From assembly GCF_006345805.1 (NCBI RefSeq), contig NC_043016.1:31000001-31064000 (forward strand): 64,000 bases of DNA, written 5' to 3'. Made by a program: the position numbers and the translations under genes. Shown here in pieces: positions 7,640 through 52,510 of the stretch (the first letter of the stretch is position 1; every line of letters begins with the position of its first letter). Source of the DNA: Octopus sinensis (lineage: Eukaryota). The notes beneath the pieces were generated by a model. That model saw only the letters and a list, made by a program, of their open reading frames with translations. It did not search any database and was not told the origin of the DNA.

Positions 7640-8270
7640 TTCAGTGAATTCAATCATGGGATGATATGTCACAAACTGCATGACCTTGGTATTGTTGGTA
7701 AACTAGGAGAATGGCTGCATAACTTCTTACAAGTAAAAGTCAAACAGTTGCAGCCAATGTTGCTTTCTTTGGAAAGACATCAATAAGTCCCTCATGGAAC
7801 TGTATCAGGACCACTGCTGTTTGTGGTGCCTTTCTCAGAAATGTCTTCAGCCATACAGTCAGCCATTCTCACCAGTTATACTGATGATATAAAAATATTA
7901 CAAGTGGTCAAGCACTCTGATGACCTCCTAAAACCACAGAAAGACCTAAATGCAATATACAATAGCATGCAGTTCAATGCTGAGAAGTTTCAAGCGCTCT
8001 GCTATGAACCCACAAACAGACTACAATTAGAATACACAGGTCCAGGGGATAGTGCATTCCCAGAGTTGATGTGTGACCTGGGAATCCACATTAATGATGC
8101 AACATTACATGTGCATGTTACCAATATAGCAACACAGCTGAATGGATTCTTAGATCATTCAGAAACAGGGAAAAGGATACCTTGCTACTCCTGTGGAGAA
8201 CAGTTGTTCTCAGTTGCCTGTATTAATGCTCCCAACTGTAGTCCTTGCAGAGTGTCAAACTAATAGTGGA
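7640..8270 (+). mobile_element. Decayed CR1/L2-like reverse transcriptase fragment
   Basis: HGMICHKLHDLGIVGKLGEWLHNFL, GTVSGPLLF, YTDDIKI, MQFNAEKFQ motifs. Confidence 0.8.
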
Positions 8271-18200: not shown

Positions 18201-18468
18201 ACAAGTGCACCTATCTATCATAGTAATATTCATTTGTTATATTTTCAAGCTCAGTAGTCCTTGTCTGGTCAACATTATAAACAGATCTGTATATTTAGAG
18301 TAGTTGGTTATCAAGTAGGATACTCTTAGTAACACTAATTTCTATCTATCTTATGAACTGAGATTATTTTGAATATAAGTGTTATAGATGTAGGCCTATA
18401 AATTAAATTGTCATGTTGTCCAGCTCCATAATTACTGTATGTTTAAATGTTGTATTTGATTTTATTAG

Positions 18469-18570
18469 GTGAAGAATTTGCAAAATGTCCTGTTGATGCC
18501 TACCCTGGTTTAGCTATTGAGCCTGTGATGGATTCCAGTAGATACTTTGTGATTCGAATCAAAGAAGGGG
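18469..18570 (+). CDS. NECAP: NECAP coding exon ((G)[33 protein letters not shown])
   Basis: ttattag| acceptor, |gtaagg donor, conserved [10 protein letters not shown] motif, in frame with neighbouring exons. Confidence 0.96.
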
Positions 18571-19634
18571 GTAAGGAACATCAAAATTTACAGTTATTAC
18601 AAAGGATTTTATTTCAAAAGAAAAAAAATCTTTTCAGATTTTTTTAATATTCAATAATTTGCTATTTGACAAAATATTGTATTTAAATGTTTTTTTTTTC
18701 TAACTTTATATTCCAATTGAGTTTTACATAGTGGATATATTTTGAAATTTTAATAGCCTAAGAAGTCATTGACATCATTATCATTAATGATTATTTTATC
18801 TGTCTTTACATTTTAGTCTTGGTTTGATGTGTTTAAGACACATCTTATCTCTAATTCTTTTCACCACGTTTCATCTCTTTTCTGATGCCTCGTGTTTTGC
18901 TTCTGAATCTTAAACCCTCCACTGTCAATTCTTGGCACTTTCGTCTCCCAGTTTAATCATCTGATCGCTTTACATACCAATGTAGTTGCTTCTCAGGCAT
19001 ACTTCAGCTGATACCTCTGTTGCAAAACTGCTTGTCAACTCAGATGCCCATGGCCCATACGTAAATGACATTATACATCCAATGGTCCAATGGGATGTTT
19101 TTGTTTTAACGAAAGAAGTTTCCTTTCTAAACCAATACTAACCTGTCAAAATCAGAATCTTTAGCTGGTGATTGAATTATAGACTCTTCTGCATAGTGCT
19201 CTATACCACAACTCCTCTTTGCTTATGTCTTTCCCACAGGTATTCACTTGCAATGATTCAAGAGGAACATTTACAGCATCTGTTTCCCTGGTCTCGGAGG
19301 GCCTGCAAAGACCATGGGCACTGTCCCTTCCTCCAGACCCAACAAGTAAAAAAAATAAAAGATTTTATTTATTACACCATTGTCCTATAAATAGGACAAT
19401 TTTGTTAAACCTATTCTTCTATCTTTGCTGCTAAATTTGTCTAACATCTACACCTGACTGGTTTTTTTTTTTTACTACCTTTCAAATCATTAGATGCAAG
19501 GAGTACTTTTTACTACTAATATAATTCTAATTCATTGTCACCTACACTTATATTGCTTTAAACAGCTATGTTTATTTAAAGCTTAACTATTTGTCTGAAA
19601 TCAAATTCTTTCATATTTCAATTTTTGCTTTCAG

Positions 19635-19716
19635 AACGAAGTGCTTTCATTGGAATTGGTTTTACAGATAGAAGTGATTCATTTGATCTGAATGTTGCTC
19701 TACAAGATCATTTTAA
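19635..19716 (+). CDS. NECAP: NECAP coding exon ((E)[26 protein letters not shown](K))
   Basis: tttcag| acceptor, |gtaagt donor, conserved [22 protein letters not shown] motif. Absent from the ORF track; read manually. Confidence 0.96.
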
Positions 19717-19777
19717 GTAAGTTTCTAATCTTCAAATATTCTTGTATTTCATTTTAGCTGTCTGATATAAATTATTT

Positions 19778-23214: not shown

Positions 23215-23680
23215 ATAATATAATAATGAAATTATTGTATACAGTGCTCAGGTGCACCACAACTTGTCAGAAAGTGCATATAAAGCACATGCAGTAATGT
23301 ACAAATGTCTGGAAAGCGAACAATGTATGAGTCAGATACATGCTTGTGTGTGTATGGAGGGGAGAAAATCAGGTGTAGTATTGGTGAATCTCAGAAAGCA
23401 TGGAAGTTTTGAAGGATGCAGTACTCTGACAACTAACAACTGATGCCGGCAGTTTGTTCCATGCTTCAGCAACTCTCAGCGTGAAAAAATGTTTCCTAAA
23501 GTCATGGGAGCTATGCTGTTTTCTGACTTTGTAAATATGTCCACGGGTGTTAGACGGGTGGACTTTGAAAAGGTGCTCAGAGTTATTGTTTGTAAGATGG
23601 TTGATAATTTTATGGGTGTCTGCCAAGTCAGCTGCCAGACGTCGGAGTTTCAATGTGTCCATGCCCAGGGAAGTAAGTAT
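23215..23680 (-). mobile_element. CR1-like LINE 3' fragment
   Basis: LKLRRLAADL..HKII, TRGHIYK, RKHFFTLRVAEAWNKLP; (TTA)n tail at ~23215-23228. Confidence 0.85.
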
Positions 23681-24651
23681 TGTCTTGCTACTCACTAAAG
23701 CAGCATACTATTAATTCCTCCATGCAATAATAAAATCAATTATGCAGTAACTATTCCAGAGCAATGCTCTCTACCATTGATGATGGTGATAAATACTATC
23801 ATTATTGATCATGGTGCTACCTTATTAACAGCAAAAATATGCTAATTAAAAAAAAATATCAACTCTCTAAATACTCTTTCCATCTTTATTCTTTCCTTAA
23901 TTTACATCACTGGTGATGGTGGTGATTGCAATGATGACAATTACCATAATTGCGCACTACAATCTTTATGCATTTTGATGCTCATCGTTGTTATGTTTAC
24001 AATGAAAACAAAAAGCAACAGTAGCTATCTAGACTCGAAGTAGTGAAAGATTACAAGGCTGCTTTTGATATTAGCTTGATGTATTTGCCTGGAAGTTACA
24101 ATTCTAATTTTCAGCCTCTCTCTTTTAGAGTTGCATATGCTACTATACTAAAATTGTCGTTGATATGCATTATATAAATTGTGGTAGTACTATATTTTAC
24201 TCTAATGATCACCATCTCATTATTACCACGCAAAATAGGTAATAGGAATTCAGCAACAGTTCATTGTGGGGAACGCCTTTAGATTGGTGATCGGTTTCAG
24301 TATATCTTTTATTTAATCAATTATTAATTATTTTGAAATTTAGCTAATAGGACTGTCCACCCCTGAATAGTAATTTTATTATATTCTTGCCTAGTGGGTA
24401 CTATTGGTATATTCTGCCTTTTATCCAATGCCTTTTTCTTATTCTTATTTACTTTAAATAAAATGAAAAAAGGTATGTGTATTTCATTCTAATAATTTAT
24501 TTGACTGTATCTCATGCTGATGTAAGATTTAAACTTGTTCATCATTTGCCTTATTAAGTATTTTAACAAAAACTTTTTGTGCTTGTTACAAACCATTAAG
24601 AAAACCTCAAAGCGAGATAGATTTCTGTTAGTACAGAAACAAGGGAAGCTA

Positions 24652-26071
24652 CTTAGTTAGTTAATTTGGCTCAAAAGCAAATAGCAAGGCCATGTAGGGG
24701 GACATGGAGTTAAGTACAGGGTGGTGTTCATGTAAAGAGTTCAGGCCACTTGAAGTCCAGGGAGGCTTTGAACAAAGCGGTCGTCGGCATCTTTACCATC
24801 TCGTCTGGCAGCTTGTTCCACGGATCCGCAACCCGGACGGAGAAAGCTCCTCTCCTTCGATTGAGATGAAATCGTCGCAGATAGAGCTTTTCGGAATGAC
24901 CCCGCAGCCGACGCTCTGGAGCAGGAGTGAAGAACAGCTCTTTCGAGAGGTTACACTTTCTGCTTATGATGTTGTGGGCGAGAATGAGATCATCACGGCG
25001 GCGGCGTTTTTCAAGAGAATAAAGGTTGAGCGTCCTCAGCCTTTCTTCGTAGGACAAATTTTTGAGACCATGAACCATGCGGGTAGCCAGCTTCTGGACT
25101 CTTTCGAGATGCTGTATGTCTTTGAGGAGATAAGGAGAAGAGGCTTGAATCCCATACTCCAATATGGGTCTCACCAGCGTGACATAGAGTGGTAGGAATA
25201 TGGCTGCTGTGAGCATTCCGAATGACCGTCGAATCAAGAACAGAATTCCGCTTGCTTTGTTGGCAGCATGGACGCACTGGGCCAAAGGCGAAAAGGAGGA
25301 ATCCACCAAGATACCCAGGTCCTTTACCTGATCGGTCCTCTCCAGCAGCAGACGACCTGGCTCGAAATCAAGTTGAGTTGCAGGAGTAGAGCTGACAGGC
25401 AGATGACAGCACTTTGACACGTTCAGACACAGGTCCCAATCGTTAGACCACTTCCAAATTTGGTGGAGGCATCGACGAAGATCCTCTATATTACCGCGAG
25501 GAGCGACCAGTTTGATATCGTCGGCAAATAGAAGGGTGTGTTGTGTGAGGTCGTCGGGCAAGTCATTTATGAAGACTAAGAACAACAAGGGCCCAAGCAC
25601 TGAACCTTGAGGCACGCCACTGCTCGCACTGGAGACGTTGGACCGCGAACCATTAACTTGGACTTGGAAGGAGCGATCTGAGAGGAAGGCACCAACCCAT
25701 CGTACAATATCCGGATGGAAACTATATGCTTGAAGCTTGACAAGTAATAGGCGGTGGTTTACCGAGTCAAAAGCTTTGGCAAAGTCCAATAAAACGATGT
25801 CAACAGCATCACTATCATCGAGGATGCACGTCACCAATTCTTCCATTACTAGTAAGTTGGTCAAGCATGATCTCTTCGGCACGAAGCCGTGTTGGGAATC
25901 AGAGATAGAGGCTGTGTTTAGGAGGTGGAGCATCATACTTTTCTTAAGGATGGTTTCGAACATCTTGCTGATTATTGATGTAAGGGAAACCGGTCGGTAG
26001 TTAAGCGGGTCTTCGCGGCTCCCTTTCTTGAAAATTGGGCAGATTATCGCTGTTCTAAAATGATTGGCCAT
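24652..26071 (-). mobile_element. 5'-truncated young CR1-clade LINE with an uninterrupted 447-aa RT ORF (24728-26071)
   Basis: NYRPVSLTS, QHGF, DFAKAFDSV, GVPQGSVLGPLLF, FADD, KDLG, RRRDDLI, WNKLP; no stops; (TAAC)n tail at ~24652-24664. Confidence 0.95.
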
Positions 26072-27034
26072 ATTTCATTCTCTAAATTGAACTACATCAC
26101 GTGACTGCTGTCACATACAGCTAAGTTAAACAAACACTGAAGCAATACTAAAAGTACAAAGGAGTGTATTTAATATGACTAGAGTACTTGTCACTTATAG
26201 TCTGATTCAGAAGGAGCATCTAAAGTATTTATAGGTGTAGAAATATTGAACCCAGGTGTGTTTTGAGGCATCATTTGTTTTGGAGACTCAGTTACTTCTG
26301 GTTTAGGCACAAGATTAGAATAGACATTACCACAAAGTACAAGGTGGTTTAATGATACAGTACGCTGCCTACCATCAGGGAATTTGAAGAGTTCTACTTC
26401 CTTTACTAATGGAATATATTTACTCTGACGGTTGGGACATTTCAGGAACACTTTGTTACCCAGGGAAGAGAGTCATGACAGGATGGGCTGCTCACTTAGA
26501 GATTTATGCTGATACTTAAAAAGATGTTCATCAGGAGTGCAATTTGTTGAAATTAAGAGATGAGAATGGATTGAAAGGAGTGCACCTGGAAGAACAAGTT
26601 CCCATTCTGAGGGTTTCAGTCGTTTTAATTTCAGAGCCAGTGATATTGTTCACCAAATTATTTCATTATATTGTTCTATTTATCCATTCCCTTCTGGATT
26701 CTAAGAAGTAGGCCTGCTACTAGCTGATGCGTGAATCCTTCAATATGGAAATCCTCCAATTGAGAAGAGTTTTGATAAGCACTTTATAATAGTTCTGGTG
26801 GTCATATCTGCTCATTGGAAGCAAAAGGGAATCTTAAAAATTCATGCTGACAATGGTCAACAAAAATCAGTTTTTGTAGTTAGATGGGAAGGTCTTTTCA
26901 AATCAAAGTCTAGTCATTCAAAGGCCTGAGTAACCGTTATCACATGAGCAGGTATTGAATTATAAAACGTTGGCTTTATCTCAGCACATGTGGAGCATAT
27001 AGAGATCATTCTTTTGACTCTCTTCTATAGAATA

Positions 27035-30190: not shown

Positions 30191-31841
30191 CAGAAGAAAT
30201 ACCTAGCCAAAGATAAACCTCTGTACCTGGCTTTCATTGATATGGAGAAAGCCTTTGACAAGGTCCCTTGATCACTAATCTGGTGGTCAATGCGGAAACT
30301 AGGGATAGATGAGTGGTTAGTGAGAGCTGTACAAGCCATGTACAAGGTTGCTGTCAGTAAGGTGAGGGTTGGTAATGAGCATAGTGAAGAATTCCGGGTA
30401 GGGGTAGGGATCTACCAAGGATCAGTCCTTAGCCCTATCTTATTCATCATAGTCCACTAGGCAATAACAGGAATTCAAGACAGGTTGTCCCTGAGAGCTT
30501 CTTTATACTAATGACCTTGTTCTAATAGCTGAGTCACTATAAGAACTAGAGGAGAAGTTTCAGGTGTGGAATCAAGGTCTAGAATTGAAGGGCCTTAGAG
30601 TCAATCTAGCAAAAACCAAAGTCTTAATAAGTAGGAAGGCAGACAATTCACAAATCCCTTCAGGTAGATGGCCCTGCTCGATCTGTAGAAAAGGCATAGG
30701 TGGAAACTCCATAAGATGTATCCGGTGTAAGATATGGACACATAAGAGGTGCAGCAATATCAAAGGAAGGTTAACTGGGAAGATAGTTTTTGTGTGTGGC
30801 AAATGCTTAGGGGCACTAAACACTGAAAATATGCAGAAAACAGCTTCCGTCACATGCCAGGGGGAAAAAGTAGAAGGAATTGATAGCTCCCATTACCTAG
30901 GTGACCAAGTCAATAGCAGAACTGGTTGCTCTGACAGTAGCCGCTAGAATAAGAATAGCCTGGGCTATGTTCAGAGAGCTCCTACCTCTGCTGGTGACAA
31001 AGGGCTTCTCACTCAGAGTGAAAGGTAAACTGTATGACGCATGTGTGTGAACAGCCATGCTACATGGCAGTGAAACATGGGCCGTGACTGCTGAGGACAT
31101 ACGTAAGCTTGCCAGGAATGAAGCTAGTGTGCTCCACTGGATGTGTAATGTCAGTGTGCATACACAACAAAGCGTAAGTACCTTGAGAGAAAAGTTGGAC
31201 ATAAGAAGCATTAGATGTGGTGTGCAAGAGAGTCAACTGCACTGGTATGGTCATGTGTTGCGAATGGATGAGGACAGCCGTGTGAAAAAGTGTCACACCC
31301 TAGCAGTAGATGGAACCTGTAGAAGAGGTAGACCCAAGAAGACCTGGGATGAGGTAAAGCATGACCTTTGAACATTGGGCCTCACAAAGGTGATGACAGA
31401 TGATCAAGACCTTTGGAGATATGCTGTGCTTGAGAAGACCCGACAAGCCAAGTGAGACCATAACCTCATGGCCAATGACTACTGCCTGATTGGTATCCAT
31501 GCCAGTGGCACGTAAAAAGCACCATTTGAATGTGGTTGATGCCAGTGCCACCTGACTGGTCCTGTGTCAGTGGCACGTAAAAAGTACCATTTGAGCGTGG
31601 TTGTTGCCACTGCTGCCTAACTGGCTCCCATGCCGGTGGCATGTAAAAAGCACCATTTAAGTGTGGTTGATGCCAATACTGCCTGACTGGCCCTCGCACC
31701 AGTGGCACATGAAAAGTACCCACTACACTCTCAGAGTGGTTGGCATCAGGAAGGGCATCCAGCTGTAGAATCTTTGCCAGATCAGATTGGAGCCTAGCAT
31801 GGAAAGCTGACGTTAAATGATGACAATGATGAGGATGATGA
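30191..31841 (+). mobile_element. 5'-truncated RTE-clade LINE (source of family B tails)
   Basis: YLAFIDMEKAFD, QGSVLSPILF, LRVNLAKTK, a Cys-rich insert, MLHGSETW, LHWYGHV, RGRPKKTW with stops; repeat-rich 3' UTR; (GAT)n tail. Confidence 0.9.
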
Positions 31842-38552: not shown

Positions 38553-38923
38553 GTAAAGCGCAATGAAAGTGGGACGAAACAACGATCAAAAGGACCTGCT
38601 ACTGCTGGAGGATTACTTCCTCCTCCACCAGGTCCTAATATCAAAATAATGCCTTCCTCTGGTAGCCAACAAATTTCAAGCTCAACAAATCATACAAAAG
38701 CAACAGCCATTCAAGGAAGTCATGAAAACATTCCAAATAATAAGCCATCATCAGTAACTGCCATTGAAGATTTGTTGTGCGATTTGGGCACAAACAACAA
38801 ATTTGCAACAGATGCATCTACCAGCAGAACTGATTCATCTAATAAAATTATATCTCCTTTATATAATGCGTCTGGTGCAAGTAATAACACACTTGTAGAT
38901 TCTAGCTGGGGTGACTTTACCAG
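38553..38923 (+). CDS. NECAP: NECAP coding exon (low-complexity C-terminal region, GLLPPPPG ... SSWGDFT)
   Basis: atttag| acceptor, |gtatgt donor. 371-bp open frame that includes ORF 38649+, with the NECAP-type LLPPPPG and WGDF motifs. Confidence 0.92.
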
Positions 38924-39136
38924 GTATGTAAAAATTGGTTACTTCAAGTATATGTCTTGTGTAAAATATTTAAATCCTTAAACATTATTGTTGTTTGGTA
39001 GATTTTTATGTATGTGCATTGCATATTTTTTTGTGTTTATTTTACATATTTTAGCTAAATAACATACTTTATTATAGAAAAACTTGTACATTTATTAATC
39101 TTTCTGTAATTATAAATATTCTGTTTTGTTTTCCAG

Positions 39137-39173
39137 TTCACACAGTTCTGCCAGCAATTGGGTTCAGTTTTGA
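39137..39173 (+). CDS. NECAP: NECAP last coding exon ((S)SHSSASNWVQF*)
   Basis: ttttccag| acceptor; ends in NWVQF-TGA, the NECAP C-terminal AP-2-binding motif. Confidence 0.95.
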
Positions 39174-41810: not shown

Positions 41811-42686
41811 TTAACCCTTTAACATTTAAAGCAACCATATCTGGCCCAAATATTCTATCTTTCTTATGTTCAAAATGGCTAAATCCACCCTTTCACATCT
41901 ACCCTACAATGTCATTCTTAAAATAAGCAATCACATCATTGAAATCTCGAAGCTATGATATAAGCCATGATTTATTCAAAACAAAGCGAATAAAATAAGC
42001 ATTACACTTGACAGAAATCTGAATGTTAAAGAGTTAAACCAACCATATCTAGCTCAAATATTTTAGCCTTTTTTTATGTTCAAACTGGCCAACTGTAGCT
42101 CCTCACACCTAGCCTGCAATGTCATTCTAAAAATAAACAATCACATCATTGAAATCTCAAAGCTTTGAGATAAGCTATGATTTATTCAAAACCATGTGAA
42201 TAAATAAGCATTACATTTAACAGAGTAAGCTAAATGCTAAAGGGTTAAACCAGCCATATCTAGCCAAAATACTCTGGCTATGTCCAGCCCAGATATTCTA
42301 CTTTTTTTTTATGTTCAAACTGGCTAGATCTGGCCTCTCACACCTACCCTACAATGTCATTCTAAAAATAAACAATCACATCATTGAAATCTCGAAGCTA
42401 TGAGATAATGTATGATTAGTTCAAAACATTGTGAATAAATAAACATTAAATTTGACAGAATAATTTGAATGCTAAAAGATTAAACCAGTCATATCCGGCT
42501 CAAATATTTTACCTTTTTTTATGTTCAAACTGACCAACTCTTGCTTCTCACTCCTACCCTACAATGTCATTCTTAAAATAGGCAATCACATCATTGAAAT
42601 CTGAAGGTTATGAGATAATACAGGTTTAATTCAAAATAGTGTGAATAAATAAGCATTACATTTGACATAATAATGTGAATGCTTAA
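41811..42686 (+). repeat. Four-unit tandem array (~205-235 bp) of a piggyBac-type MITE
   Basis: Recurring ctaccctacaatgtcattc..acatcattgaaatctc..gaataaataagcattaca; units end in (G)GGTTAA-like sequence at 42037, 42248, 42483, ~42686. Confidence 0.9.
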
Positions 42687-47200: not shown

Positions 47201-47536
47201 AAGTTAAACCCCTTCAGGAGCAGGAAACCTAAGATAATCCCATAAACTGGCTTTCTCCATTTTTAATATATACTGCTCTACATCTTAGAGTGTGCTTCTT
47301 TCGAATTTATGTTTTTTACAAACGATATATGTATGTGTAAATATATATATATATATACTACAAAATTAGAAAATGGAGAAACATACTTAAATCAATCAAA
47401 TATCAACCATCAGATGATACCCAATCAATACTTTATTACACCATTACATAACAGTAAAGGCATTATACAAAAAATATATAGTAAATATAATTAGACAATG
47501 AAATAGACATATAAAATATAATATATAATTATAACA

Positions 47537-47652
47537 TATCTGACAGCTGTTTCGGCCGTAAGGGCAAGCATGCCTCATTTAACCTATAAGCCATATAAGG
47601 CAGGTATAAATGAGACATTAACAAGGATGCCCCACGGCCTCTTCAGAGAATT
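47537..47652 (-). ncRNA. Type I hammerhead ribozyme motif (minus strand)
   Basis: Minus strand reads uuCU-CUGAAGA-GGCCGU[...]ACGGCC-GAAAC-AGCU-GUC-AGA: complete core, helix II, palindromic helix III, GUC site. Confidence 0.75.
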
Positions 47653-47889
47653 TAATTTATTATAAGTGTGAAAAAAATATATATATATACTCATTAATAC
47701 AATAATACAAAATAAACAAAACAAAATATATCAATATTGATATATTTTGTTTTGTTTATTTTGTATTATTGTATTAATGAGTATATATATATATGTGTAG
47801 TATTATGAGTGTCTATGCACACGTTTTTATATTTTATATTTTTATATTTATATGTATAAAAAATTTTTTTCACACTTATAATAAATTAA

Positions 47890-48004
47890 ATTCTCTGAAG
47901 AGGCCGTGGGGCATCCTTGTTAATGTCTCATTTATACCTGCCTTATATGGCTTATAGGTTAAATGAGGCATGCTTGCCCTTACGGCTGAAACAGCTGTCA
48001 GATA
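47890..48004 (+). ncRNA. Type I hammerhead ribozyme motif (plus strand)
   Basis: CTGAAGA 47895-47901, GGCCGT..ACGGCT helix II, GAAA 47988-47991, CAGCTG, cleavage triplet GTC 47997-47999. Confidence 0.7.
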
Positions 48005-48356
48005 TGTTATAATTATATATTATATTTTATATTTTATATGTCTATTTCATTGTCTAATTATATTTACTATATATTTTGTATAATGCCTTTACTGTTATGT
48101 AATGGTGTAATAAAGTATTGATTGGGTATCATCTGATGGTTGATATTTGATTGATTTACGTATGTTTCTCCATTTTCTAATTTTGTAGTATTAATTCACG
48201 GTAATATTTTTACCTTTGCCCACATAATACAGTAGATGAATTAATTGCATGGCAATTTTTAACATTTATGTATTAGTATTGTTGGGTACCTCTCTAGCAG
48301 TATATTGGATATATGTTATCCCATGGTGGGTTGAATTTTCAACCCCTATCTCATTT

Positions 48357-48388
<32 letters not shown>

Positions 48389-49546
48389 TACATATATTAT
48401 CTGTGTGTATGTGTGTGTGTATCTTAGTATCTGTTTTTGTCCACCACCACCACTTGACAACCAGTGTTGGCGTGTGTATGTCCTCATAACTTAGCAGTTT
48501 GGCAAAAGAGATTAAAAGAATAAGTAGCAGGGTTAAAAAGTAAGTACCAGTGTCAATTCATTCAGCTAAAATTCTTCAATGCATGGATGTGTGGTAAGAA
48601 GTTTGCTTCCCAACCTCATGGTTTCAGGTTCAGTTCCATTGCGTGGCATTTTGTGCAAGTGTCTTCTACTATGATCTCTGGCTGACCAAAAAAGCCTTGT
48701 GAGTAGATGTGGTAGACAGAAACTGAAATTAGTGATGTGTGGTTGAACACAGCCATGTTGAAGATGCTCACCCGATTGACACTTGTGTCGTTTCAGCTGA
48801 ATTGCTTCATTGCATCAGTGCATTTACTGAACATAAAGATTTGCATTAGTCATATGGTTGTTTCCAAGCATTTCATAGTGAATTAGCCCTTCCCAATCCC
48901 ACCATACACTAATCATTGTCTTGCATGTATGCACCTCTGGTTTGGCTGGAGGTATTATTTGCTTGTTTAGATTTATCCATTCTTTTTTTCCGTTTCATAC
49001 TGATGCAAAGACACCATCTTTCATCACCTGTAATGATACAGTAAAGAAATCTCCATTTGTGTCCAAGTAGACTGGTGTCGAGAGAGCAAACTGGTGGCCA
49101 TGGAGGAGTGCCAGAGTTCATCTCTTTCATTCAGAATGTATGGAATCAATGAACTGAGTTTTTTGGACCTGACCCATAGAGTGATGGTGTCAGATTGATG
49201 GTATCGTGAGAGCACTTCATCTGTTGTGTCAGTTCCCTATGGATTACGAATAAGCTGGTTCAATCTATCCTCACTTAACTGAACTGGTTGACCAAAAAAT
49301 GTTGAGTCTGTGAGGTTGAATTCCCCTGCTTGAAGTCTGAAAACTATTTCTGTGCAGTTCTTTCAGTAATGGCACTTTCTCTACACACAGCACAAATGTC
49401 TTTTGGCTGCTTTGGCAGATTTAGGATCTTGGTTGAACATGAAGGGAAGCAGATGTCAAAAATGTTCAATTCTTTTTTACTTGGCAGTTTATCATCATAT
49501 GTCTGGAAAAAAGATAAAGTTTATTCAGATTTCAAAAATGATAAAC

Positions 49547-49925
49547 AGAGTGGCTGTGTGGTAAGTAGCTTGCTTACCAACCACATGGTTCCAGGTTCAG
49601 TCCTGTTGCGTGGCACCTTGGGCAAGTGTCTTCTACTATAGCCTCGGGCCTTGTGAGTAGATTTGGTAGATGGAAACTGAAAGAAGCCCATTGTATATAT
49701 GTATATATATGTGTGTCTGTGTTTGTCCCCACCACCATCGCTTGACAACTGATGCTAGTGTGTTTATGTCCCTGTAACTTAGCGGTTCGGCAAAAGAGAC
49801 TGATAGAATAAGTACTAGGCTTACAAAGAATAAGTCCTGGGGTCGATTTGCTTGACTAAAGGCGGTGCTCCAGCATGGCCACAGTCAAATGACTGAAACA
49901 AGTAAAAGAGTAGAGTAAAAAGAGA
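49547..49925 (+). mobile_element. SINE family A copy
   Basis: Family A similarity. Confidence 0.9.
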
Positions 49926-50610: not shown

Positions 50611-51099
50611 CCATCATGGTTATATTCTTTAGGATTTCCACTATCAGTCTTCTCACCACCACAAATGAACAAGCTGAACTTTTTCAATACCATCTGCAGT
50701 TTTGATGCTAAACTCTGCTTCATAAAGGTAACATGTAGCTAATCATGATTTCACATGCTATAATAAAGATTTAACAGAATTTTAAAATTGAGTCCAACCT
50801 CGGATTTTGCAGTTCTTGCTTATGTATCAATTGCTGAACAATGATACCTAAGCCATCTGAGTGCACAGTCATCTGTTTTCCAGATTGGAATTGACGGACC
50901 ATGAAGTTTAATAAACTTGAAATTGCTGACATAGTTTATTAACATACTAGACCTTATTTCTGTCAAAATAAAGTCCATGTTACTAAAGCCTTATTCATGC
51001 TCAGAGAAGCTGTATGAGATTACTTTTGAACGTCTGATTAAGGGTTTCCAATCTGGTGGAATATGTCACCCACTATTGTCAAGAAATACTGATGACTTA

Positions 51100-52510
51100 T
51101 AAGTATGAGGTATTTCATTATGCAACCATAATATACTATAAAGTGTATTAAACATGTTTTATAAGTTAATAATGTGTTCTCCTGTATTAGCAGTGTACTT
51201 TTACATTATTTCTTAAGGTTATCTTTACAGATATTCGATAGAAATTATAGCCAGCATTAATTTGTGTTACTATGTTTCATATACAAGATGTCAGAGATTG
51301 AAGATGAAAAATGGGTAATGGGCATATATGCATATTTCTGGGCATTTCCCTGCTGCATCAGCACCCATCTAACCCCTTAATCATCCATGAACTCATTGCT
51401 TAAATAGCCACTACATATAGCAGTGTATAATTATTGGATATACCAATTTTACATATTAAATGCATTCCTGGAAGCTGATACATGAATACTAATGATTTGT
51501 AGGTACATGGTATTTCATTATGCAAATCAAACATTTTTTATAAATCAATAATGTGTTCTGTGTTAGCAGGAAAAGGAAGCGAGGGCACCCAAAGCAGACA
51601 TGGAGGTGGAGCATTTTGAACAAGCTCAGGACCACCGGCCTGACATAGGAAGCAGCCAAGAAACATGCCAATGACTGCAAAAAGTGGAATACAACTGTTG
51701 AGGTCCTACATTATTTCTTAAGGTTATCTCTACAGGTATTCGATAGAAATTATAACCAGAAGTGATTTTTGTTACACAGTTTCGTATCTGAGATGTCAGA
51801 TATAAACAAACAATGAGATTGAAGATGAAAAGAGGGGTAATGGGCATATATGCATATTTCTGGGCATTTTTTCCCCTTTATCAGCACCCATCTAACCCAT
51901 TAATCATCCATGAACTCATTGCAGGTGGCATGCAAAAGACACCATTTGAGTGTGGCCGTTGCCAGTACTTCCTGACTGGCCCTTGTGCCGGTGGCATGTA
52001 AAAGCACCCACTACACTCACAGAGTGGTTGGCGTTAGGAAGGGCATCTAGCTGTAGAAACTCTGCCAGACAAGATTGGAGTCTGGTGCAGCCATCTGGTT
52101 CGCTGGTCCTCAGTCAAATCGTCCAACCCATGCTAGCATGGAAAGCGGACGTTAAATAATGGTGATGATGATGATGATATAGCAGTGTATAGTTATTAGA
52201 TATACCAATTTACATATTAAATGCATTCCTGGAAGCTGGTACATGAATACTAATGATTTGTAAGTACATGGTATTTCGTTATGCAAATCAAACATTTTTT
52301 ATTTGTCAACACTGCATTCTCCTGTGTTAGCAGTGTGCTTTTACATTATTTGTTTAGGTTATCTCTACATATATTCAATAGAAATTATTGTCTACACTGA
52401 TTTTTGTTACTATGTTTCATTTTCTCCAGATCCTGGGTTTATTTCAGCAGTATTGACTTCTCAGCTCAGTTATCATGTTTGTAATGGACTATAAAGTGGC
52501 TGGCTGAGAT
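51100..52510. repeat. Locally triplicated block, interrupted by a family B LINE tail (51920-52177)
   Basis: ggtatttc(a/g)ttatgcaa..ttacattattt..ggttatct recurs at ~51110, ~51510, ~52270. Confidence 0.8.

Follow-up and report, generated by a model that had tools for sequence, protein, structure and literature searches.

Positions 47355–48357 of the 64,000-nt stretch of Octopus sinensis DNA analysed here (the window) very probably hold a 5'-truncated Penelope-like element (PLE) of the Hydra clade, present as an inverted and a direct stub within a (TA)n target and bearing a predicted hammerhead ribozyme that has a lineage-specific long helix II and is likely to act only as a dimer. The foldback and the kind of element are already known; the long helix II is, as far as our literature search reaches, an undescribed structural variant. 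In that search, made with limited access to subscription papers and outside Repbase and Dfam, no long-helix-II hammerheads were described for Hydra-clade or cephalopod PLEs.

The foldback and its hammerhead motifs

A sequence-only reading of the window had described a foldback of ~835 bp beside (TA)n, with two oppositely oriented hammerhead cores, arms differing at a few sites and no ORF, and all of this is borne out: an inverted repeat of 837 bp (47355–48191) meets at a zero-spacer centre (47735/47736), each arm carries one core by sequence, and no ORF of at least 110 aa overlaps the locus. The limits given in that reading (47356..48190) hold for the inverted repeat but not for the outer boundary, as the insertion continues through a tail to ~48357 and only then reaches (TA)n; since the tail is present on the right arm and absent on the left, the insertion is taken to be about 47355–48357 (Table 1). 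Between the arms there are 2 substitutions and 3 indels (70, 7 and 2 nt), and the reported contrast of a G-C with a G-U closing pair is real, G-U being the right-arm variant and G-C the state in 27/30 top genomic matches.

Table 1. Features of the insertion and its flanks, in window positions.
Feature	Position	Strand	Remarks
(TA)n target, left flank	47341..47357	.	Sequence; border with the element ambiguous by a few bases
Inverted 5'-truncated element 3' end (pLTR)	47355..47678	-	Stops at terminus 1, tail-less
Left-arm type I hammerhead motif	47539..47649	-	Mirror motif, read 47649..47539; G-C closing pair; predicted cut between 47542 and 47541
Short inverted piece of the direct copy's 5' end	47679..47735	-	Forms the zero-spacer centre; left arm is without 70 nt present on the right
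Direct 5'-truncated element 3' end (pLTR)	47736..48191	+	Up to terminus 1
Right-arm type I hammerhead motif	47892..48002	+	G-U closing pair; predicted cut after 47999; helix I 5' strand 47892-47894, CUGAAGA 47895-47901, helix II 47902-47987 (86 nt), GAAA 47988-47991, palindrome 47991-47998, C17 47999, helix I 3' strand 48000-48002
PLE tail, ~166 nt, to terminus 2	48192..48357	+	Equals the start of the ORF 5' leader in full-length copies
Two predicted hairpins just upstream of terminus 2	48307..48349	+	Stretch most conserved between close subfamilies; candidate protein-recognition site
(TA)n target, right flank, then (CA)n	48358..48371	.	Sequence

Both arms present a type I hammerhead core (CUGANGA, GAAA and NUH round three helices, with helix I open) in the form of CUGAAGA, an 86-nt helix II, GAAA, an 8-nt palindrome, a GUC triplet and a 3-bp helix I. 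The core is intact in 30/30 top genomic matches, a set selected by similarity, and helix I is just 2–3 bp in the subfamilies of the window and of L078, a full-length relative. Folding agrees with the earlier description of an ~86-nt helix II as a single long hairpin (z = -4.1 and -5.3, with 0/200 shuffles as stable). Its placing of the motif among PLE-like type I hammerheads whose helix III is palindromic is upheld, and the cut site that it expected after 47999 stands as a prediction, with C17 placed there by conventional hammerhead numbering. The Infernal-type search that it proposed was negative: an Rfam scan gave no hammerhead match at gathering score or at E<=10, just AT-rich miRNA and snoRNA noise.

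Inspection by eye of three alignments found no helix I loop or conserved pseudoknot for a loop 1–loop 2 contact. The minimal hammerheads already described from PLEs likewise leave this contact ill-defined (Cervera and de la Pena 2014, PMC4209133). Two further candidates were set aside: a pseudoknot between an internal loop and the flank, rejected by eye because the loop is unconserved, and an intron concealed in helix II, which was unsupported, no joint of that kind being listed for the sequencing-run contigs.

Elsewhere in the window, exons on the + strand at 18468-19726, 38553-38981 and 39159-39173 belong to a gene with Pfam PF07933 above cut-off at two places, which we take to be NECAP-like (WGDF and terminal WVQF motifs) and whose stop codon lies ~8 kb before the insertion. 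A 448-aa open frame on the - strand (24728-26074) has endonuclease-RT, LINE-like features by eye, and further RT fragments lie at 7787-8263, 23369-23707 and 30543-31232. To the right of the insertion are two copies of a dispersed, presumably SINE-like repeat (48404-48728 and 49551-49909; families D1, D3 and D14), and local tandem duplications occur at 42069-42683 and 51085-51922, with periods of ~210-235 and ~500-520 bp.

The parent element and its copies

The sequence-only reading had proposed a non-autonomous retroelement family. This is contradicted by other copies in the 2.72-Gb genome, in which the same 3' end is preceded by a UTR of ~2.3 kb and, upstream of that, by an ORF for an RT and a putative endonuclease. 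Among 16 extended loci, L033, which shares the 86-nt helix, contains a 749-aa, 5'-truncated open frame ending ~2.3 kb before the motif. Its RT region, used as a query, returned 14,151 candidates, and the 136 that were scored include two 960-aa open frames (L077 and L078) lying between hammerhead-bearing direct repeats, with an inverted copy in front of each. L078 reads inverted copy, partial tandem, ORF, UTR, repeat and tail, with its hammerheads 5,602 nt apart; direct repeats are also found in L079, and inverted copies in L080 and L081. The first ATG of the full-length element lies ~510 nt downstream of the cut site. The intact 960-aa frames represent a sister subfamily (85-nt helix, ~80% UTR identity, 90% RT identity), and the copies inspected did not include a complete, intact member of the window's own subfamily.

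The encoded protein has RWR, DKT (D151-K152-T153), YRDD (389-392) and CxCx5C (C822-C824-C830) motifs and, at its C-terminal end, VVY(841-843)..YIG(856-858), CxxC (C920-C923) and CxH (C948-H950), with a single Cys and no CC pair in the VVY..YIG interval. In an alignment of 29 proteins, VVY..YIG lines up together with the R, E and N that follow it. Linkage to an RT/GIY-YIG ORF, which had been put forward as a check, is found for the RT (L033, L077 and L078), the endonuclease being a candidate by its motifs and by weak Pfam GIY-YIG matches in just 2/29 alignment members (best E 0.0033). Sequence searches of Pfam and the PDB left the ORF unnamed, and the protein P0001 had no Pfam RT or GIY-YIG match. 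An AlphaFold model (pLDDT 74.8) returned telomerase RTs as its top five Foldseek matches (E about 2e-9 to 1e-8), and among the matches listed for the whole model are RTs and further polymerases but not a single GIY-YIG nuclease. Hydra-clade diagnostics are RWK and DKT, a CxCx5C linker, no CCHH, and CxxC and CxH round E and N (Craig et al. 2021, PMC8557442, section 11). By this motif list, and with likeness to the published Hydra alignment judged by eye, the element can be assigned with high confidence to the protein-coding PLEs of the Hydra clade. A Nematis identity for the ORF was considered and dropped, the Hydra motif list fitting instead. Residues 518-643 and 728-819 of the L078 ORF are Asn-rich, low-confidence inserts that are absent from most relatives and lengthen the protein to ~950 aa.

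Copy number and arrangement, both earmarked in the sequence-only reading for a genome search, can now be given. A 131-nt core query yielded 1204 candidates (40 scored, all 97-100% identical), and an exact 31-nt pattern covering both close subfamilies had 497 genomic matches, with 0 for its control. Thirty fetched loci share common 3' ends with coverage falling toward the 5' side, the signature of 5'-truncated retrotransposition. For 31 3' ends, drawn from 29 locus records (L002 being excluded because it duplicates L001), 25 finish at terminus 1, which corresponds to 48191, and the other 6 continue through the ~166-nt tail; (TA)n, a Hydra-clade target feature, abuts 30 of the 31. The last ~67 nt of the tail (window 48291-48357; L078:2192-2260; L084, L096, L083) are 93-99% identical across six close copies, and in distant subfamilies changes in the two hairpins of this segment preserve pairing.

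Among the first 100 pattern hits listed, representing 77 loci, pairs within 10 kb comprise 21 back-to-back, 2 tandem (1.1 and 5.5 kb apart) and 0 convergent. The back-to-back pairs have the polarity of the foldback and spacings of 0.5-7 kb. The suggestion that the inversion is the inverted, truncated end of a PLE is upheld. In three further close pairs that were inspected, an inverted stub of 358-381 bp faces a direct copy of greater length. PLEs have been described as having inverted copies truncated at the 5' end and a tail on one side, and the foldback is routine PLE anatomy. An origin by misassembly of a palindromic read is highly improbable: the zero-spacer centre would suit such an origin, as would the observation that no contig from eight sequencing runs spans the whole foldback, but the arms differ at five places including the 70-nt indel, the tail sits on one arm only as in other pairs, the same polarity recurs across the 77 loci, and the three further pairs were resolved. 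The pattern of a second lineage (lineage B below) has 201 exact genome matches, with many back-to-back pairs, some just ~100-170 bp apart.

Helix II, folding and cleavage

A hammerhead scan of 40 RT-bearing loci of the genome distinguished three long-helix lineages, with helix II of 85-112 nt (A), 56-60 nt (B) and 55 nt (C), and with RTs 49-56% identical, or closer, to the L078 RT segment. Between lineages the sequences of helix I (2-6 bp) and of the palindrome are replaced with pairing preserved, and the core is retained; some copies in B, C and L084/L085 depart from full pairing by one mismatch or wobble, and three of the L084/L085 copies have a core altered by U4C. Covariation, one of the checks named at the outset, is found in lineage A helix II (n=11), where 8/24 pairs are changed on both sides, a value matched by 0/500 shuffles and set against 1-4 in slid controls; since the alignment tested was also the source of the structure, and its sequences are related, this counts as support and carries no P value. 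It is weak in lineages B (6 sequences) and C (4 sequences). The ribozyme is more conserved than its flanks against L077/L078 (91% vs 78-82%), with a small or absent difference against the other eight. No hammerhead was recovered in L086 (just a neighbouring short-helix motif), L088, L089, L095, L101 or L116; L111 gave just a 21-nt motif, and that of L087 is cut off. Short-helix-II (16-31 nt) hammerhead-like motifs, apparently of neighbouring elements, lie in L086 (5263, ORF strand), L113 (6960), L111 (6071) and L108:8924.

As a control, a permissive scan (helix II to ~170 nt) of 77 metagenomic loci recovered a sense-strand motif in 45 and an antisense motif in 0, with helix II of 11-25 nt in all 45 of these Hydra-like motifs; the remaining 32 gave no motif, and many of them have little DNA beyond the ORF. 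In the window's own genome, a short motif of the Hydra-1_Obim type has 16 matches. Two midpoint-rooted RT trees, built from genomic rows picked by similarity to L033 and containing neither named references nor an outgroup, group the long-helix lineages with three database proteins and separate them from every short-helix locus (support 1.0 and 100; L094 omitted from one tree as too short, 19 redundant rows omitted from the other). The RT of the short-helix Obim type falls outside the long-helix group, a weak placement made with a piece from 1/10 fetched loci that covers 48% of columns on a long branch. A reading of published Naiad 'half cores' as long-helix hammerheads was unsupported, since by eye GAAA precedes CUGAUGA; the record judged is the one whose end is shown just before Naiad_Ovul and which by file order is Naiad_Obim (File S5 of PMC8557442). 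The end of that record has short complementary blocks and might, by eye, be a rearranged hammerhead.

Folding predicts that the active monomer lies 1-8 kcal/mol above its MFE, and so misfolds, the value for the window motif being 7 kcal/mol. The active dimer, joined through the palindrome, lies 11-16 kcal/mol below two active monomers in 10/10 motifs; it is the cofold minimum in just 2/10, and for the window motifs it lies 7 kcal/mol above that minimum. These energies suggest a hammerhead that probably cuts only as a dimer, via its 8-nt palindrome. The eight sequencing runs, contigs of presumed RNA status, gave no starts or ends, and although two of their contigs cover the cut site on both sides, this carries no weight as evidence.

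It is worth considering that the element may be rightly named and the motif nonetheless a dead or very slow relic, its hairpin having been retained for structure, for protein binding or for promoter function. The predicted misfolding of the monomer, the 2-3-bp helix I and the U4C variants point that way, as do two published cases: minimal PLE hammerheads cleave weakly in vitro (PMC4209133), and in an anole PLE cleavage needed protein and RNA was not observed to end at the cut site (Frangieh et al. 2024, PMC11167929). We nevertheless regard a relic as rather unlikely, for the core has been retained in three lineages while helices I, II and III were replaced with pairing kept, and the motif of relatives is confined to the sense strand in the metagenomic control. 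Real cleavage by the predicted hammerhead is the reading that we favour, as a reasonably probable one.

What the locus itself would do if transcribed is another matter. The foldback has an MFE of -606/-597 kcal/mol, vs -446/-441 with the hammerhead enforced, a gap of ~160 kcal/mol, and in the foldback fold 108/108 and 107/108 of the ribozyme nucleotides are paired with the antisense arm, which on both strands is transcribed first. Read-through is thus predicted to bury the ribozyme in dsRNA, and the earlier claim that transcription of either strand yields a working ribozyme and a hairpin becomes doubtful; the ribozymes at the locus are likely passengers, trapped in the duplex. With about a quarter of sampled loci back-to-back, the frequency of such pairs makes the family a possible source of long dsRNA.

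The same folding bears on the proposal that the 3' stub is a separate, non-autonomous, retrozyme-like element, spreading through its own RNA and giving a ribozyme and long dsRNA from either strand. A locus without an ORF, the predominance of short copies, the lack of an intact ORF for the exact subfamily in the copies inspected and a 2026 preprint deriving retrozymes from pLTRs (10.64898/2026.07.22.740005) would all accord with it. In this family, however, the 5' ends form a continuum that reaches into the ORF, the ribozyme is buried by the foldback, and the non-coding tandem arrays of 150-450-bp units that characterise retrozymes (PMC7229834) have as their counterpart 2 tandem pairs among 77 loci, with a linked ORF and no such array in the window. 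The proposal is already largely refuted, and we hold it to be very unlikely.

For the truncated Hydra-clade PLE, the following course may be suggested. The RT-endonuclease of the element would nick (TA)n, and cDNA would start at either of two internal sites, which lie 192 and ~358 nt past the point where the ribozyme would cut; priming at two internal sites has been shown for the anole element (PMC11167929). A back-to-back pair would be left if synthesis stopped early and priming took place a second time in the opposite orientation. Where full-length copies lie in tandem, with their two ribozymes separated by 5.6 kb, pairing of the 8-nt palindromes would free an RNA of unit length, possibly aided by protein, and dimer cutting of a tandem transcript could yield a circular template, as proposed in PMC4209133. 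Against this course, insertion did not depend on ribozyme cleavage in the anole element, the one PLE studied in vitro (PMC11167929).

Our tentative preference, held at low probability, is that the long helix II serves as a protein-docking arm. On one branch of Hydra-clade PLEs, a helix II of 55-112 nt might replace the missing loop-loop contact and serve as a docking or switching arm that gates dimer cleavage and circularisation, its partner conceivably being the element's RT-endonuclease or a host dsRNA-binding or editing enzyme; the joint reading is doubtful as it stands. Were it true, there would be a protein-gated subclass of hammerheads, missed by current descriptors and present in hundreds of copies per genome.

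The family bears on what PLE hammerheads do. A published core-only search for PLE hammerheads allowed 7-17 nt between half-cores, a limit which, together with the Rfam miss, means that PLE hammerhead counts may be too low. One genome offers near-identical copies with open frames, two sharp termini, a helix II series of 55, 60, 85, 100 and 112 nt and a short-helix relative.

Comparison with known systems

The closest likeness is to Hydra-clade PLEs, including Hydra-1_Obim (PMC8557442), with which the element shares an RWK-type motif, DKT, CxCx5C, CxxC and CxH, the lack of CCHH, (TA)n targets, a type I hammerhead close to the 3' end, copies arranged in tandem or inverted, and a tail on one end; the C-terminal endonuclease of the clade has a putative, motif-based counterpart here. 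It departs from them in several dimensions: helix II is 55-112 nt here and 10-24 nt in the 25 Hydra families listed (own count, File S2 of PMC8557442); helix III is an even 8-nt palindrome, against 9-10 nt in listed families; the unit is ~5.6 kb with a ~2.3-kb UTR and Asn-rich inserts, whereas Hydra families are generally <3 kb; and the tail is ~166 nt rather than 30-40 bp. The RTs of the long-helix lineages also form a long-branch group separate from the short-helix loci in the midpoint-rooted trees.

With the minimal PLE hammerheads of PMC4209133 the motif has in common a short helix I, a palindromic helix III, a G10.1-C11.1 pair and proposed dimer cleavage, and opposite-strand hammerhead pairs 100-700 bp apart are described there for Schistosoma. 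The 'larger than usual' helix II of that paper is 7-8 bp, in contrast to ~20-30 bp and internal loops here, and the unpaired base that precedes helix II in minimal PLE hammerheads is lacking in the window family. An enlarged helix II in a PLE hammerhead does have one parallel in PLE-X1_sMoe of spike moss (File S2 of PMC8557442), where the helix II region has 9 bp and a 35-nt loop, 53 nt in all, and is marked non-canonical; this is a single case, from a plant element that belongs to another clade and has no endonuclease; its helix III is not palindromic, and no covariation is given in the file.

Metazoan non-LTR retrozymes (PMC7229834) are similar in their type I hammerhead, AT-richness and many copies, but they are non-coding tandem units with canonical helices, whereas here the motif marks the end of a coding element that is dispersed and often inverted. 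Finally, Poseidon PAc of Anolis (PMC11167929) shows the same combination of two RT start sites that explain the tail, AT-rich targets and a pLTR hammerhead; its ORF starts inside helix II and its tail is short, while in the octopus element the ATG follows well past the cut site.
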